This document shows positions 18,206 through 35,460 of a DNA stretch of 64,000 nucleotides, in pieces. The DNA is from Bryobacterales bacterium. Its GTDB lineage: Bacteria > Acidobacteriota > Terriglobia > Bryobacterales > UBA6623. The position numbers and the translations under genes are program-made. The notes beneath the pieces are model-generated. The model was not told the origin of the DNA. It saw nothing but the letters and a program-made list of their open reading frames with translations, and searched no databases. The stretch is taken from positions 6,828,692 to 6,892,691 of the forward strand of contig OZ252029.1 in the NCBI GenBank assembly GCA_965247515.1. The letters run 5' to 3'. Every line of letters begins with the position of its first letter. The first letter of the stretch is position 1.

Positions 18206-20192
18206 GTGCGCCGAACTGGCGCGAACACCCTGTGGGGTGAAAGGCCCCGCCGATGAAGATGTCGGTCGACATCGAAGCTGACGAGTGGCGAAGGCCGGTA
18301 ACGGTCGAGCCGAAGCCTCGTGACAAAGTCCGGCTTGGCCGGGCGAGCAAGCCGTTAGGCCGTAACGCGCAGTATGCCCGAGCAGGCCTCGAAAGTGAAA
18401 TCGCGGACGCCGACCCGACGCTGAAGTGGGGAAGGCCGCGCAAACCGGGAAGCGACCGACGCCTGCACCGGTTTGGTTCGCCGGGGTAGTAGGCGCGGCA
18501 TGACGGTAAAGGGAGTTCGTAGTCAAAGGCGGGAGGCCCCGGCGGGTGGAGTTCGCAACTCTAACGTCGTCTATAAGGACGGCGGCCTGGATGGGGAGTC
18601 GGACAGGGCCATAGTAGTGAGGAAGCGGAGTAATGTCCGTGGAGCGAGGGGCCCTGCCTTCCGGCATGCTTGTTAACGAGTAAGAGGACGAGGTGATTGG
18701 CTATGAGTCTGGCAACGCCTGATAAGATCCGGAAGCTCCAGCGCAAGCTCTATCTCAAAGCGAAGCAGGAACCTACGTTTCGCTTCTATCAGCTCTATGA
18801 TAAGATTTGGCGCGACGACATTCTCGCCCATGCTTACCGGTTGGCGAAAGCTAATAAGGGTAAGCCGGGAGTGGATGGTGAAACTTTCGAACAAATCGAG
18901 TCGGCGGGCCGAGAGGAGTGGTTACGAGGACTGCAAGAAGAACTTCGTATGAAGACGTATCGGCCACAGCCCGTGCGGCGAGCAATGATCTCGAAGCAAG
19001 ACGGCGGCGAGCGTCCGCTCGGGATTCCGACCATTCGGGACCGTGTCGCGCAAACCGCCGCCAAGCTGGTTGTGGAGCCGATCTTCGAAGCGGACTTCGA
19101 TCCGGAAGCCTATGGTTACCGGCCGAAACGGAGCGCGCAGGACGCGATCCAGAGAGTTCACCAGCTGTTGTGTCAAGGCTACGCCGATGTAGTCGACGCC
19201 GATTTGTCCAAGTACTTCGATACGATTCCGCACGCCGAGCTGATGCAATGCGTGGCGCGGCGTATTTCAGACCGCTGGGTCCTTAAGCTCGTGAAGATGT
19301 GGCTTGGGGCCCCAGTGGAAGAGCGGGATGATGACGGGAAACGACGGATGACGGGTGGCAAGAGGACGAAATGCGGCACGCCACAAGGCGGAGTTGTGAG
19401 TCCTTTGTTAGCTAATCTGTATATGAACCGTTATTTGAAGTATTGGCGGCAACAAGGGAAGGGAAGCGAGTTACGAGCCGTGGTGGTCAACTATGCCGAC
19501 GACTTTGTCATCCTTAGCCGCGGTTGCGCGGCCGAGGCGATGAAGTGGACGGAGCAAGTGATGACGCGGATCGGGCTTACCCTGAACCCGGTGAAGACGA
19601 AGTTAGTTCATGCCAAGACCGAGAGCTTTGACTTTCTCGGATATACGTTCGGCCCGCATCGATTTCGTAAGGACGGCCATTGGTATCTGGGGGCGAGTCC
19701 GTCTAAGAAGAGCGTCAAGCGGCTTAAGCAGAAAGTGCGTGAGCAGCTGTGGCCGAGCAATGTGGACCCCTGGGAAGAGGTGCGCGACCGGCTGAACCGC
19801 ACGTTGCGGGGCTGGACAAACTACTTTTCTTACGGGACGCGCATGCCGGCCTATCGCGCCGTGGACAACTTTGTCTACGAGCGAGTGCGAGGATTCTTGC
19901 GGAGGCGGCACAAAGTACAATCGCGAGGTACGCGCCGGTTTTCCGGCGTGGTTGTATTTGGCGCGAGGGGCGTTTTGCGTCTGCGCCAGGTGCAACTGGG
20001 GCCGCCATCTGCGACAGCGATGAGGTGAAGTCGGCCGGAGAGCCGGATGCGGGAAATCCGCACGTCCGGTTCGATGAGCGGGGACGGGAAACGGAGTCAA
20101 GGCGGAGACTGAGGCACTGGCGCAAGCGAAAGCAGCCAGCAACGGCTACTCCCTCCGGCTAAAGCCACCGCGCCCGTCCTCGACTCTACCGT
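18206..20192 (+). mobile_element. Group II intron, copy A (1987 bp; 5' GTGCG; ORF in domain IV)
   Basis: Begins GTGCG and is identical over 1987 bp to the element at 33474-35460 on the minus strand. Flanks diverge exactly at these points. Confidence 0.8.
18697..20028 (+). CDS. Group II intron reverse transcriptase/maturase (no obvious HNH endonuclease domain)
   Basis: RT motifs including YADD (VVNYADDFVIL) and a maturase X-like C-terminus. 443 aa, identical to the 33638-34969 ORF. Confidence 0.85.
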   Translation: MAMSLATPDKIRKLQRKLYLKAKQEPTFRFYQLYDKIWRDDILAHAYRLAKANKGKPGVDGETFEQIESAGREEWLRGLQEELRMKTYRPQPVRRAMISKQDGGERPLGIPTIRDRVAQTAAKLVVEPIFEADFDPEAYGYRPKRSAQDAIQRVHQLLCQGYADVVDADLSKYFDTIPHAELMQCVARRISDRWVLKLVKMWLGAPVEERDDDGKRRMTGGKRTKCGTPQGGVVSPLLANLYMNRYLKYWRQQGKGSELRAVVVNYADDFVILSRGCAAEAMKWTEQVMTRIGLTLNPVKTKLVHAKTESFDFLGYTFGPHRFRKDGHWYLGASPSKKSVKRLKQKVREQLWPSNVDPWEEVRDRLNRTLRGWTNYFSYGTRMPAYRAVDNFVYERVRGFLRRRHKVQSRGTRRFSGVVVFGARGVLRLRQVQLGPPSATAMR

Positions 20193-20316
20193 GGGACTGG
20201 AGTTTCTACATTTGCGGACGGGGGAGGGCCATGGTTGAGGTAGGTCGGTAGATGGTTATTGACATACCGATAGGATTGAGCTATTCTGTTCTTGGCCCCG
20301 CTCGGCGCCGCTGCCT

Positions 20317-20649
20317 ATGCCCGACGATCTCCGCGATACTCTTCTGGAAACCCTAGAATCAGCCCTCGATGCTCAGCTGCGCGCCGTTCGTCGGCTGCGA
20401 TCGAAACCCCCTCCCCGGCCCAAGCGCCCTTCGCCTCAAGGTATGCCTCAGGTCGATATGGCCCATGACATACTCGCCGGAGCCGAGCGTCCGCTGCATA
20501 TCGCGGAGTTGATCGAGGGCATTCAGGCCAGGTTTTCCCGTGCGGTTGACCGCGAAAGCCTCGTCTCGGCGCTGTCGAAGAAGATCGCTCGCGGCGACCG
20601 TTTTGTGCGCACCGCGAAGAACACTTTCGCGCTGCGTAGCCCGGATTAG
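20317..20649 (+). CDS. IS-internal small ORF (HTH-like accessory protein)
   Basis: 110-aa ORF inside the IS boundaries, upstream of the transposase. Confidence 0.3.
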   Translation: MPDDLRDTLLETLESALDAQLRAVRRLRSKPPPRPKRPSPQGMPQVDMAHDILAGAERPLHIAELIEGIQARFSRAVDRESLVSALSKKIARGDRFVRTAKNTFALRSPD

Positions 20650-33365: not shown

Positions 33366-33473
33366 CACGCCCGGCGCTAACTTGGCCAACTCAGCGACAT
33401 ATTGCACGTCAACGACCCGATGACGCCGTCAGGATAAGTTGCAGTCTGCTTGGCGCACTACACTAGCGCGGGA

Positions 33474-35460
33474 ACGGTAGAGTCGAGGACGGGCGCGGTG
33501 GCTTTAGCCGGAGGGAGTAGCCGTTGCTGGCTGCTTTCGCTTGCGCCAGTGCCTCAGTCTCCGCCTTGACTCCGTTTCCCGTCCCCGCTCATCGAACCGG
33601 ACGTGCGGATTTCCCGCATCCGGCTCTCCGGCCGACTTCACCTCATCGCTGTCGCAGATGGCGGCCCCAGTTGCACCTGGCGCAGACGCAAAACGCCCCT
33701 CGCGCCAAATACAACCACGCCGGAAAACCGGCGCGTACCTCGCGATTGTACTTTGTGCCGCCTCCGCAAGAATCCTCGCACTCGCTCGTAGACAAAGTTG
33801 TCCACGGCGCGATAGGCCGGCATGCGCGTCCCGTAAGAAAAGTAGTTTGTCCAGCCCCGCAACGTGCGGTTCAGCCGGTCGCGCACCTCTTCCCAGGGGT
33901 CCACATTGCTCGGCCACAGCTGCTCACGCACTTTCTGCTTAAGCCGCTTGACGCTCTTCTTAGACGGACTCGCCCCCAGATACCAATGGCCGTCCTTACG
34001 AAATCGATGCGGGCCGAACGTATATCCGAGAAAGTCAAAGCTCTCGGTCTTGGCATGAACTAACTTCGTCTTCACCGGGTTCAGGGTAAGCCCGATCCGC
34101 GTCATCACTTGCTCCGTCCACTTCATCGCCTCGGCCGCGCAACCGCGGCTAAGGATGACAAAGTCGTCGGCATAGTTGACCACCACGGCTCGTAACTCGC
34201 TTCCCTTCCCTTGTTGCCGCCAATACTTCAAATAACGGTTCATATACAGATTAGCTAACAAAGGACTCACAACTCCGCCTTGTGGCGTGCCGCATTTCGT
34301 CCTCTTGCCACCCGTCATCCGTCGTTTCCCGTCATCATCCCGCTCTTCCACTGGGGCCCCAAGCCACATCTTCACGAGCTTAAGGACCCAGCGGTCTGAA
34401 ATACGCCGCGCCACGCATTGCATCAGCTCGGCGTGCGGAATCGTATCGAAGTACTTGGACAAATCGGCGTCGACTACATCGGCGTAGCCTTGACACAACA
34501 GCTGGTGAACTCTCTGGATCGCGTCCTGCGCGCTCCGTTTCGGCCGGTAACCATAGGCTTCCGGATCGAAGTCCGCTTCGAAGATCGGCTCCACAACCAG
34601 CTTGGCGGCGGTTTGCGCGACACGGTCCCGAATGGTCGGAATCCCGAGCGGACGCTCGCCGCCGTCTTGCTTCGAGATCATTGCTCGCCGCACGGGCTGT
34701 GGCCGATACGTCTTCATACGAAGTTCTTCTTGCAGTCCTCGTAACCACTCCTCTCGGCCCGCCGACTCGATTTGTTCGAAAGTTTCACCATCCACTCCCG
34801 GCTTACCCTTATTAGCTTTCGCCAACCGGTAAGCATGGGCGAGAATGTCGTCGCGCCAAATCTTATCATAGAGCTGATAGAAGCGAAACGTAGGTTCCTG
34901 CTTCGCTTTGAGATAGAGCTTGCGCTGGAGCTTCCGGATCTTATCAGGCGTTGCCAGACTCATAGCCAATCACCTCGTCCTCTTACTCGTTAACAAGCAT
35001 GCCGGAAGGCAGGGCCCCTCGCTCCACGGACATTACTCCGCTTCCTCACTACTATGGCCCTGTCCGACTCCCCATCCAGGCCGCCGTCCTTATAGACGAC
35101 GTTAGAGTTGCGAACTCCACCCGCCGGGGCCTCCCGCCTTTGACTACGAACTCCCTTTACCGTCATGCCGCGCCTACTACCCCGGCGAACCAAACCGGTG
35201 CAGGCGTCGGTCGCTTCCCGGTTTGCGCGGCCTTCCCCACTTCAGCGTCGGGTCGGCGTCCGCGATTTCACTTTCGAGGCCTGCTCGGGCATACTGCGCG
35301 TTACGGCCTAACGGCTTGCTCGCCCGGCCAAGCCGGACTTTGTCACGAGGCTTCGGCTCGACCGTTACCGGCCTTCGCCACTCGTCAGCTTCGATGTCGA
35401 CCGACATCTTCATCGGCGGGGCCTTTCACCCCACAGGGTGTTCGCGCCAGTTCGGCGCAC
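33474..35460 (-). mobile_element. Group II intron, copy B (identical to copy A), inserted in the 3' end of the AhpD-like gene on the same strand
   Basis: 5' GTGCG at 35460 (minus strand). Identity to copy A ends at 33474. A 5'-exon hairpin gccggggcttcggc lies immediately upstream. Confidence 0.8.
33638..34969 (-). CDS. Group II intron reverse transcriptase/maturase (copy B)
   Basis: Identical 443-aa protein. Confidence 0.85.
   Translation of the reverse strand: MAMSLATPDKIRKLQRKLYLKAKQEPTFRFYQLYDKIWRDDILAHAYRLAKANKGKPGVDGETFEQIESAGREEWLRGLQEELRMKTYRPQPVRRAMISKQDGGERPLGIPTIRDRVAQTAAKLVVEPIFEADFDPEAYGYRPKRSAQDAIQRVHQLLCQGYADVVDADLSKYFDTIPHAELMQCVARRISDRWVLKLVKMWLGAPVEERDDDGKRRMTGGKRTKCGTPQGGVVSPLLANLYMNRYLKYWRQQGKGSELRAVVVNYADDFVILSRGCAAEAMKWTEQVMTRIGLTLNPVKTKLVHAKTESFDFLGYTFGPHRFRKDGHWYLGASPSKKSVKRLKQKVREQLWPSNVDPWEEVRDRLNRTLRGWTNYFSYGTRMPAYRAVDNFVYERVRGFLRRRHKVQSRGTRRFSGVVVFGARGVLRLRQVQLGPPSATAMR

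Follow-up and report, generated by a model that had tools for sequence, protein, structure and literature searches.

We find that the window, a 64,000-nucleotide stretch of a Bryobacterales genome (contig OZ252029.1), carries two identical copies of a group II intron. Judged from its sequence, the intron is a complete member of bacterial class F, variety g3, with an IIB-like ribozyme and an RT-maturase that lacks an endonuclease (En) domain. We consider it very likely that this is an active element, that copy A occupies the hairpin used as its homing site, and that copy B is a recent insertion in a CMD-family (AhpD-like) gene, where splicing would restore the C-terminus RPFPR. The intron copies and their parts are as follows.

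18206 to 20189, plus strand: group II intron copy A, 1984 nt, GUGCG...CUAC
33477 to 35460, minus strand: group II intron copy B, same sequence as copy A, coordinates mirrored from copy A
18231 to 18370, plus strand: domain I core (Rfam group-II-D1D4-4, 80.2 bits, E 6e-16)
18420 to 18426, plus strand: EBS1 (GCUGAAG) in a hairpin loop, intron nt 215-221; in copy B 35246-35240, minus strand
18489, plus strand: EBS3 (G), intron nt 284, partner of the 3' exon C at +1 (IBS3); in copy B 35177, minus strand
18703 to 20028, plus strand: intron-encoded protein (IEP), 441 aa, in domain IV, with RT and maturase (X) domains; in copy B 34963-33638, minus strand
20040 to 20072, plus strand: domain V (DV), with AGC triad, 2-nt bulge and 5-nt terminal loop GAAAU; in copy B 33626-33594, minus strand
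20076 to 20186, plus strand: domain VI (DVI), 111 nt, unusually long, as predicted by folding

The copies lie 13 kb apart on opposite strands. The inverted sequences 18206-20192 and 35460-33474 are 100% identical over 1987 nt, and a position in copy B equals 53666 minus the position in copy A. The original prediction took all 1987 nt as intron. The identity stands, but the intron itself has 1984 nt, opening with GTGCG at 18206 and 35460 and closing with CUAC at 20189 and 33477, so that the earlier 3' boundary overshot by 3 nt. The last three identical bases (CGT) are 3' exon in both copies. The 3' splice site is placed at CUAC because of the intron-less allele in sister strain L001, the Rfam DV/DVI match, which stops at 20189 in copy A, and the covariation of EBS3. 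The 5' exons share GGCTTC(A/G)GC, as had been noted; the 3' exons, described as unrelated, do have CGT in common.

Domains I, V and VI can all be modelled, by Rfam or by folding, as expected of a group II intron. Both copies match Rfam group-II-D1D4-4 with 80.2 bits (gathering 49) and the Intron_gpII model of DV/DVI with 45.8 bits (gathering 40). The minimum-free-energy fold, together with the Intron_gpII match, defines domain V, in which the lower helix has its full 9 bp. In the fold of domain VI, the bulged branch-point A is 20183 (33483 in copy B), 7 nt from the 3' splice site; this domain is about 50 nt shorter in most relatives. EBS1 matches CUUCAGC at site A (IBS1, CTTCAGC, 18199-18205) by 7 Watson-Crick pairs, and CUUCGGC at site B (IBS1, CTTCGGC, 35467-35461, minus strand) by 6 Watson-Crick pairs and one G-U. 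In a set of 44 non-redundant introns of the family, the five exon positions from -1 to -5 are paired with EBS1 in 98-100% of sequences, with 4-6 pair types. For EBS3 and exon +1 the figure is 87% (39 family introns, 5 pair types). The set of 44 yielded no covarying EBS2; EBS2 has been described for class F introns.

The IEP matches two Pfam domains only, RVT_1 (1.2e-35) and GIIM (1.6e-14), so no D/En domain was found by profile, in agreement with the proposal of an RT without endonuclease. It scores 374 bits against the NCBIfam group II RT/maturase TIGR04416 (cut-off 300), has YADD at residue 264 and is exactly P0241 in sequence. It is 65% identical (564 bits) to the IEP of Ni.ha.I1, which is listed as 'g3, Bacterial F' (Table S2, PMC3552965; nomenclature of variety g3 in Toro and Martinez-Abarca 2013), and 34% identical to that of the g1 intron Sr.me.I2. 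Ni.ha.I1 also matches Rfam group-II-D1D4-4 (102 bits), and Sr.me.I2 has no match to this family. A DV loop of 5 nt is characteristic of lineages IIE/IIF (PMC3753933). Three points thus carry the class F/g3 assignment: the pairwise identity to a single named member, the Rfam family common to both, and this one structural hallmark.

Copy A occupies a canonical homing site, and it does so in sister strain L094 as well. Its surroundings are as follows.

18189 to 18205, plus strand: 5' exon of copy A, TAGCCCACGGCTTCAGC, the 5' half of the canonical homing-site hairpin
20190 to 20196, plus strand: 3' exon of copy A, CGTGGGA, the 3' arm of the hairpin; IBS3 is C20190
20197 to 22081, plus strand: IS701-like insertion sequence (IS) with 15-bp perfect terminal inverted repeats, 20197-20211 and 22067-22081
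20540 to 22063, plus strand: IS701-like transposase ORF, with DDE_5 and NF049999 IS701 matches

Canonical sites lie at the tip of a REP-like hairpin with the sequence TAGCCCAYGGCTTCAGC/CRTGGG (the slash marks the insertion point) and the layout TAGCCCAYGG-CTTCAG-C/CRTGGG; a palindromic repeat element of about 175 bp ends in this hairpin. The reconstructed empty site A folds as a DNA hairpin with -11.6 kcal/mol (z = -5.3), and pairing in the stem is kept among loci by compensatory changes. The same IEP is encoded at ten further loci, and the junctions could be read in nine. The full hairpin site is present at 7 of these nine; locus L084 has a variant site with the stem kept, and L087 and L089 have only the 5' half of the site in common. 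At eight of the nine read loci the intron is 99.8-99.9% identical, and the ninth differs by a 1-nt indel. The identical IEP sequence is present on 28 contigs.

The IS end that had been noticed beside copy A is real: position 20197 opens an IS701-like element, separate from the intron and bounded by perfect inverted repeats. The distance from this element to the splice site is 7 nt rather than 4 nt, and the suggestion that one element targeted the flank of the other does not fit L094. There, the intron at locus A is followed by the full repeat element, and 373 bp, including the rest of the repeat, separate the same intron from the same IS. The juxtaposition in the window is therefore best explained by a deletion of 373 bp next to the IS, as deduced from the arrangement in L094.

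Copy B interrupts the CMD-family gene, in the sense orientation that had been proposed, four codons ahead of the stop.

35461 to 36103, minus strand: exon 1 of the CMD-family (AhpD-like) gene, with an N-terminal hydrophobic segment
33463 to 33476, minus strand: exon 2, CG TTC CCG CGC TAG, with the conserved end (R)PFPR and stop

Profile matches of this gene are weak (CMD, PF02627; TIGR01926), but it has 6942 homologues. The closest ones, when aligned, are 72-99% identical and mostly 217-222 aa long, and all 14 aligned homologues end in P-x-P-R. The unspliced reading, ...EPGLRRAPNWREHPVG and stop, was correctly predicted. The spliced end was given as LRLPR; the true junction, CGG C/CG TTC, lies 3 nt earlier and yields ...EPGLRPFPR and stop. 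Thus, splicing at this junction would not toggle to an alternative C-terminus but would return the one found throughout the family, and we read copy B as a tolerated interruption that is no source of a new isoform. The contig of sister strain L001 is colinear with the intron-less locus B and 99.6% identical across the junction, with the empty allele ggcttcggc/cgttcccgcgctag. By this comparison, copy B is a recent, strain-specific insertion into a degenerate site, absent from L001, and the very recent mobility proposed earlier is borne out. The small hairpin reported just upstream of copy B is no more stable than the folds of shuffled sequence (z = +0.25).

Three other readings can be weighed against this. 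The original prediction held the intron to be class C-like (IIC), recognizing an upstream stem-loop and a very short IBS1. A strong hairpin is present in the canonical sites, the IEP is En-less, no covarying EBS2 was detected in the 44 family introns, and the solved RT structures that score best against the IEP are IIC (180 and 177 bits). These scores are far exceeded by the match to the class F/g3 reference. Moreover, domain V combines an AGC triad and a lower helix of the full 9 bp with a 5-nt loop as in E/F, and IBS1-EBS1 pairing extends over 7 bp. The insertion point falls within the hairpin, and the intron lies in the 3' arm, unlike at terminators, where the stem-loop is upstream; a T run 3' of the stem is absent, and a significant hairpin is missing from site B and from most family sites. 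We therefore regard a IIC intron as extremely unlikely, and keep to class F/g3.

It is also highly improbable that copy B is an adaptive switch, by which regulated splicing toggles the CMD protein between two functional C-termini. The intron does lie in sense orientation within the last codons, both frames are open and differ in the tail alone, and stop-codon introns in groEL are known and tolerated (PMC12584367). However, a sister strain with 99.6% identical flanks has no insertion, so that copy B is too young to have been turned into a switch by evolution. Splicing would merely give back the ancestral protein, the unspliced tail is 5' intron sequence found unchanged in the intergenic copy A and so was not shaped by selection on protein, and site B resembles a degenerate copy of the homing site. 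No better are the prospects of explaining the identity of the copies by gene conversion between two old copies, or by an assembly artefact, instead of recent retromobility. Inverted repeats of 2 kb that are 13 kb apart could exchange sequence, and locus A is the older one, being common to L094. Yet the empty locus B in a near-identical strain makes copy B young with or without conversion, the flanks are distinct and well defined, and the L001 and L094 contigs independently reproduce each locus. In addition, an IEP on 28 contigs and near-identical copies at many loci are the pattern of an active element.

For this active element, we propose the following mechanism. As sequence and covariation show, the intron RNA selects its DNA target by base pairing: EBS1 binds the 7 nt just before the insertion point, and EBS3 binds the 3' exon base directly after it. 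The distal motif TAGCC, conserved in the family, probably also contributes. The En-less intron would then probably prime cDNA synthesis from nascent strands at replication forks, a route demonstrated for RmInt1 and other En-less introns. A preference for the template of the lagging strand has been reported for En-less introns. Since copies A and B are on opposite strands, they cannot both fit this preference unless a second pathway was used. At locus B, transcription of the CMD gene would be followed by IEP-assisted splicing through the branch-point A, joining ...CGG C to CG TTC... and giving the ancestral end, while unspliced mRNA would encode a CMD protein with a foreign tail of 11 residues.

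The closest relative considered here is Ni.ha.I1, from plasmid 1 of Nitrobacter hamburgensis. It shares the En-less RT-X protein of about 440 aa, the Rfam domain I family, an identical DV with its GAAAU loop, the DVI base and 3' end GACUCUAC, and EBS1 in the same loop register; the total length is that of class F/g3 introns, about 1.9-2.0 kb. In contrast to Ni.ha.I1, the present intron has a retargeted EBS1 (GCUGAAG), lengthened to 7 bp, and a DVI with an insertion of about 50 nt, and its homing site is a REP-like hairpin instead of an IS4 transposase gene. D.a.I1 is another class F/g3 intron, and So.us.I2 of Solibacter usitatus is class F without a g number. RmInt1 of Sinorhizobium meliloti (class D, IIB3) is the experimental model for En-less introns. 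According to its literature (PMC1802570, PMC4075523, PMC8914252), it too has an RT-maturase without D/En, homes to a repeated genetic element with occasional degenerate ectopic sites, and finds its target by EBS-IBS pairing and a few distal positions. It differs in IEP class (by class label), in its clear EBS2-IBS2 pairing, which we did not detect here, and in a target within an IS transposase gene rather than at a hairpin tip. IIC introns such as B.h.I1 and S.ma.I2, found after terminator stem-loops or in attC sites, also have En-less proteins and sites associated with DNA hairpins or palindromic repeats (PMC4424553). However, they insert downstream of the stem-loop with an IBS1 of 3-5 nt, and both ribozyme and IEP here are not IIC. 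Copy B resembles the groEL stop-codon introns of Azotobacter and E. coli (EcKTE56.groEL, IIB1), which lie in sense at the very 3' end of the gene and barely affect the host protein (PMC12584367). Those are specialized on that site in many genomes, whereas copy B arose by a single ectopic insertion in one strain, and its intron has its true homing site elsewhere.

The homing site links this intron to the Acido-Lenti-1 motif (RF01687), whose original description left its closeness to group II introns unexplained and proposed a trans-acting small RNA (Weinberg et al. 2010). Read as its reverse complement, the homing-site 23-mer TAGCCCAYGGCTTCAGCCRTGGG gives hairpin 1 of Acido-Lenti-1 together with the conserved GCUA. 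In metagenome contigs, the empty-site 23-mer coincides with full-model Acido-Lenti-1 matches on the other strand, which score 43-55 bits. In the host itself, the repeat ends reach 27-30 bits, below the gathering threshold of 37. One such structure is found just 3' of locus B.

33157 to 33361, no strand: inverted doublet of Acido-Lenti-1-like hairpins, TAGCCCACAGC GCGA GCTGTGGG (inverted repeat I5; Rfam 30.1 and 27.2 bits, under gathering)

This doublet belongs to the superfamily of the homing-site repeat, has a different loop and is unoccupied. In contrast to the small RNA proposal, the repeat behaves here as REP-like DNA that occurs both as inverted doublets and in tandem arrays, and the strand in use is the complement of the one modelled by Rfam. 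Homing into hairpin 1 is a likely reason why Acido-Lenti-1 motifs are found near group II introns.

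The two intron copies form an inverted pair found by the repeat search in the window (18197-20192 and 33474-35469), and the resemblance is real, chance being impossible. Base by base, they match exactly over 1987 nt from GTGCG at 18206 (+) and 35460 (-), with just two further matching bases upstream and none downstream. The intron itself is slightly shorter. The metagenome contig L001, from a sister strain and matching the locus of copy B, reads ...ggcttcggc/cgttcccgcgctag with the intron absent (the slash marks the junction, here and below), and the window with the intron excised is colinear with it through the junction at 99.6% identity. 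Thus, the insert is 1984 nt, GUGCG...CUAC. These termini are of the GUGYG/AY form and are fixed by the empty allele, the sole alternative register being a non-canonical shift of one base. The CGT common to both copies is therefore 3' exon. The Rfam Intron_gpII match also stops at 20189, i.e., three bases short of the identity end. In addition, base +1 of the 3' exon is paired with a particular intron position (EBS3, G18489 in the window) in 87% of 39 relatives, with five pair types. Since +1 is C in both copies, this pairing agrees with the corrected boundary. The original prediction had carried the intron to the end of the identity, which is wrong by 3 nt on all three lines of evidence and would make +1 a G in one copy and a T in the other, incompatible with the EBS3 pairing.

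The elements of copy A and its neighbor that are needed below are as follows.

18420-18426, plus strand: EBS1 (GCUGAAG), in a hairpin loop
20040-20072, plus strand: domain V (DV), folded with an AGC triad, a 2-nt bulge and a 5-nt loop, GAAAU
20076-20186, plus strand: domain VI (DVI), long and folded with bulged A20183 lying 7 bases before the 3' splice site
20197-22081, plus strand: IS701-like element with 15-bp perfect inverted repeats, starting 7 nt past the true 3' splice site

That these are group II introns, as had been proposed, is borne out by RNA and protein alike. Both copies match the Rfam domain I model group-II-D1D4-4 at 80.2 bits, above the curated threshold, and Intron_gpII, which covers DV and DVI, at 45.8 bits (gathering score 40). 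Domains V and VI can therefore be modelled in both copies, between GUGCG and CUAC termini. The intron-encoded protein (IEP), whose frame lies in domain IV, has 441 aa in both copies and carries RVT_1 and GIIM with no other Pfam domain; the YADD motif is present, and the protein scores 374 bits against the NCBIfam group II RT/maturase model TIGR04416 (cut-off 300). Because the protein ends just 32 residues after the GIIM match, i.e., domain X, the IEP is without an endonuclease (D/En) domain. EBS1 pairs over 7 bp at each site, at A with CUUCAGC and at B with CUUCGGC, where one of the pairs is G-U. Covariation of this EBS1-IBS1 pairing is strong: exon positions -1 to -5 are paired in 98-100% of 44 non-redundant relatives, with four to six pair types. 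Judged from its sequence, the intron has a complete ribozyme, an intact RT and legible rules of target pairing.

By pairwise comparison rather than an all-class tree, the intron is filed as class F/g3. Its IEP is 65% identical over 429 residues (564 bits) to that of Ni.ha.I1, from Nitrobacter hamburgensis plasmid 1, which is listed as "g3, Bacterial F" (Table S2 of Toro and Martinez-Abarca, 2013), and 34% identical to that of the g1 intron Sr.me.I2. The RNA points the same way. Domain I of Ni.ha.I1 matches group-II-D1D4-4 at 102 bits, whereas Sr.me.I2 does not match, and the DV and DVI base of Ni.ha.I1 are almost the same as those of the window intron, the GAAAU loop included. The ribozyme is IIB-like, and a DV loop of 5 nt helps to distinguish lineages IIE/IIF (PMC3753933). 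This loop and the 65% identity to a g3 member make membership of class D, i.e., an RmInt1-like intron, unlikely.

Class C had been suggested in the original prediction. Introns of class IIC insert a few nucleotides past a terminator-type stem-loop or in attC, using an IBS1 of about 3-5 nt. A hairpin does occur at the canonical site of the present intron; it spans the insertion point, however, and is absent at site B, and locus B yielded no terminator-like site outside the intron. The solved RTs of the IIC, IIB1 and IIA classes score 114-180 bits against the window IEP, those of IIC alone 177-180. We therefore reject class C on the IEP, with its 65% identity to that of Ni.ha.I1, and on DV, the 7-bp IBS1 and the target geometry. 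Relatives of the IEP number in the thousands; among species-representative genomes, the nearest (66-85% identical) lie in Bryobacterales, other Acidobacteria, Alphaproteobacteria and others. Taken together, this is an ordinary class F/g3 group II intron that is probably active. Group II introns that lack En and occur as multiple identical copies beside mobile DNA are common in bacteria.

The exact IEP of the window (P0241) is recorded on 28 contigs. Ten further IEP loci were fetched, and junctions were located in nine, one having no 5' search pattern. At eight of these nine, the intron is 99.8-99.9% identical and of the same length; L090 has a 1-nt indel. The full site AATAATCTAGCCCAYGGCTTCAGC/CRTGGGA flanks the intron at seven of the nine loci. 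L084 has a variant with the stem kept, and L087 and L089 have the 5' half only. The two halves of the site form a hairpin whose stem has 8 bp and whose loop is TTCA, the Y/R changes being compensatory, and the intron sits two bases inside its 3' arm. A palindromic element of about 175 bp terminates in this hairpin. The second end of the element, which is inverted, is intact and unoccupied at every locus where it is readable: it is an exact match in L082, L083, L085, L087 and L090, is intact in L094, a sister-strain contig matching locus A, and is present in L084 with a loop variant. Copy A occupies the canonical site (TAGCCCACGGCTTCAGC/CGTGGGA), where the hairpin has a z-score of -5.3 relative to shuffles. 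The simplest reading is that the hairpin repeat serves as the homing site of this intron lineage.

Site B differs. It reads GAGCCGGGGCTTCGGC/CGTTCCC and keeps IBS1, positions +1 to +3 and a few upstream bases. Since the 3' arm is absent and the fold of the reconstructed site is not significant against shuffled sequence, site B is ectopic. A small hairpin had been noted in the 5' exon of copy B, yet the whole reconstructed site folds no better than shuffles. The 10-nt core of site B also occurs, unoccupied, at window 49596-49605 (+) as GGCTTCGGCC, a single occurrence where the chance mean is 0.84.

Copy B lies in the last codons of a conserved CMD-family gene (AhpD-like) whose close homologues, where aligned, all end in ...EPGL(R/P)x(F/L)PR. 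The nearest of these, P0001, is 99% identical, has 217 aa and is encoded on L001. The predicted ligated exons, ...GGCTTCGGC/CGTTCCCGCGCTAG, translate to a protein ending in ...EPGLRPFPR*, the ancestral end. The spliced end LRLPR proposed earlier followed from the misplaced junction; the unspliced end RAPNWREHPVG* was translated correctly. For window 35426-36103 (-), the public protein collection holds a 225-aa read-through CMD product (P0255), and therefore automatic annotation called the gene through into the intron. Copy B is a clean natural ectopic insertion for which the empty allele is known. By comparison of the strains, copy B was gained recently and copy A has been resident longer. The recent mobility that had been argued from the identity of the copies is upheld by L001, which lacks copy B.

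For copy A, the contig L094 carries the same intron locus, and thus this copy predates the split of the window strain and the L094 strain. After the intron 3' end, L094 has the whole repeat element and about 200 bases, together 373 nt, and then the same IS end, beyond which it is 99.7% identical to the window. Because L094 retains this stretch, the window has lost 373 bp adjoining the IS701-like element. The proximity of the two elements had been read as one targeting the flank of the other; L094 indicates that neither did so and that the loss brought them together. A target-site duplication of the IS701-like element is not clear (GGGA versus GGGG). In L094 (reverse complement, 921-2986), the IEP ORF is missing 398 nt and has in their place 2066 nt unmatched in the window; a further mobile element, whose insertion was accompanied by a deletion, is the probable cause.

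Other repeats and genes surround the introns. Two inverted IS copies of 1.9 kb (13299-15218 and 46879-48798, 99% identical) encode a 520-aa DDE_Tnp_1/DUF772 transposase, and L001 has a transposase call of the same length and domains. Two repeats start with TCTGGAGTGAACCCC, a direct one of 437 nt (38052-38488 and 59752-60187, offset by 1 nt) and an inverted one of 41 nt (61316-61356). This sequence is similar to the beginning of the IS701-like inverted repeat, CTGGAGTTTC, and the two repeats probably represent a related IS or a composite arrangement. A palindrome at 8742-8848 has 52-bp arms that are 98% complementary around a 3-nt spacer. Between the intron copies lie 15 tRNA genes in 1.7 kb (28445-30157, -), with one more 2.6 kb away (32796-32868, -). 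Two of them are called as Leu (28834-28910, anticodon CAA; 28749-28825, anticodon UAG), and each has 77 nt including an encoded CCA and a 5-nt variable region, i.e., a class I shape without the long arm expected of bacterial tRNA-Leu.

From what is established for group II introns (PMC4424553, and abstracts on RmInt1), a lariat RNP would reverse-splice into DNA, and strands of the replication fork may prime cDNA synthesis, since En is absent. The CMD mRNA would be spliced with the help of the IEP. A preference for one strand does not account for both copies, which are oppositely oriented. GC skew was uninformative as a guide to replication direction in the window, its signal being dominated by the introns themselves.

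Targeting of the hairpin tip is not a family-wide rule, as most of 39 other family sites have a z-score of about 0. The 5' exons do share T-A-R-C-C-C-G at -16 to -10 across phyla. No columns in the first 330 nt of domain I covary with exon positions -8 to -16; these positions are conserved, so covariation is unreadable there. Two candidates for EBS2 were rejected. CCGUGG at intron nt 432, the complement of CCACGG, is located on the 3' side of EBS1, within a conserved stem that has a GNRA cap and directly precedes domain IV, and it shows no covariation. CUGUGGG at nt 23-29 is one arm of a covarying domain I hairpin.

The homing site also occurs well beyond the intron. Within JGI metagenome contigs, at least 120 stretches carry the 23-mer of the empty site, often as part of inverted pairs or tandem arrays or amid further small hairpins rich in GC; the first 39 nt of the intron gave no match in a scan of these metagenomes. 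On the opposite strand, the Rfam family Acido-Lenti-1 (RF01687) matches 23-mer places at 43-55 bits, and exact homing-site 23-mers lie inside such matches in two contigs, L145 and L097. Most other 23-mer instances tested gave no match at the gathering threshold of 37 bits. The Acido-Lenti-1 model consists of an 8-bp hairpin with a 4-nt loop, GCUA, a linker and a 5-bp hairpin with a 3-nt loop. In the published seed alignment, the conserved GCUA after hairpin 1 is the reverse complement of TAGC in the 5' exon. The host's own elements, i.e., the empty end at locus A in the sister strain and a doublet beside locus B, score 27-30 bits.

This doublet is an inverted hairpin pair (33157-33204 and 33314-33361, GGCATAACCGTAGCCCACAGC-GCGA-GCTGTGGG), just below the Acido-Lenti-1 threshold on both arms. 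It belongs to the homing-site repeat superfamily with another loop, is unoccupied, and is present in L001 too. A short repeated hairpin, GCGACCGCAAGGGAGCGGGTTCCGCA, at window 1463-1503, 54800-54840 and 56154-56194, is close in style to the small GC hairpins seen around the homing-site motif in metagenome contigs. In the contig L136 (3811-4485), eight tandem 84-nt units with 95% matches each contain the exact empty hairpin TAGCCCACGGCTTCAGCCGTGGG. We rejected a CRISPR reading of this array, since the repetition extends to the sequence between the hairpins.

Acido-Lenti-1 was described in 2010 as occurring near group II introns, with no reason given, and our literature search found no later work on this link. 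We consider it probable that homing explains the proximity. There is also a hint that Acido-Lenti-1 is not a small RNA but a repeat at the DNA level. A broader proposal, which we regard as possible but hold tentatively, is that this "small RNA" is a widespread REP-like DNA hairpin repeat and a natural landing pad of class F/g3 introns, recognized through RNA pairing together with an extruded hairpin. In such a scheme, base pairing by the intron RNA would involve the loop of the hairpin together with its flanks, on the other strand from that of the Rfam model, and extrusion of the hairpin as ssDNA at the replication fork would partly account for the accessibility of the site.

The 5'-exon motif TAGCC, conserved throughout the family but without a detectable EBS2 partner, points to an undefined target contact in class F/g3 introns, which could be of importance should these compact introns be developed for gene targeting. 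If the landing-pad proposal is true, it would account for the proximity noted in 2010 and would add a hairpin-tip targeting mode outside class C.
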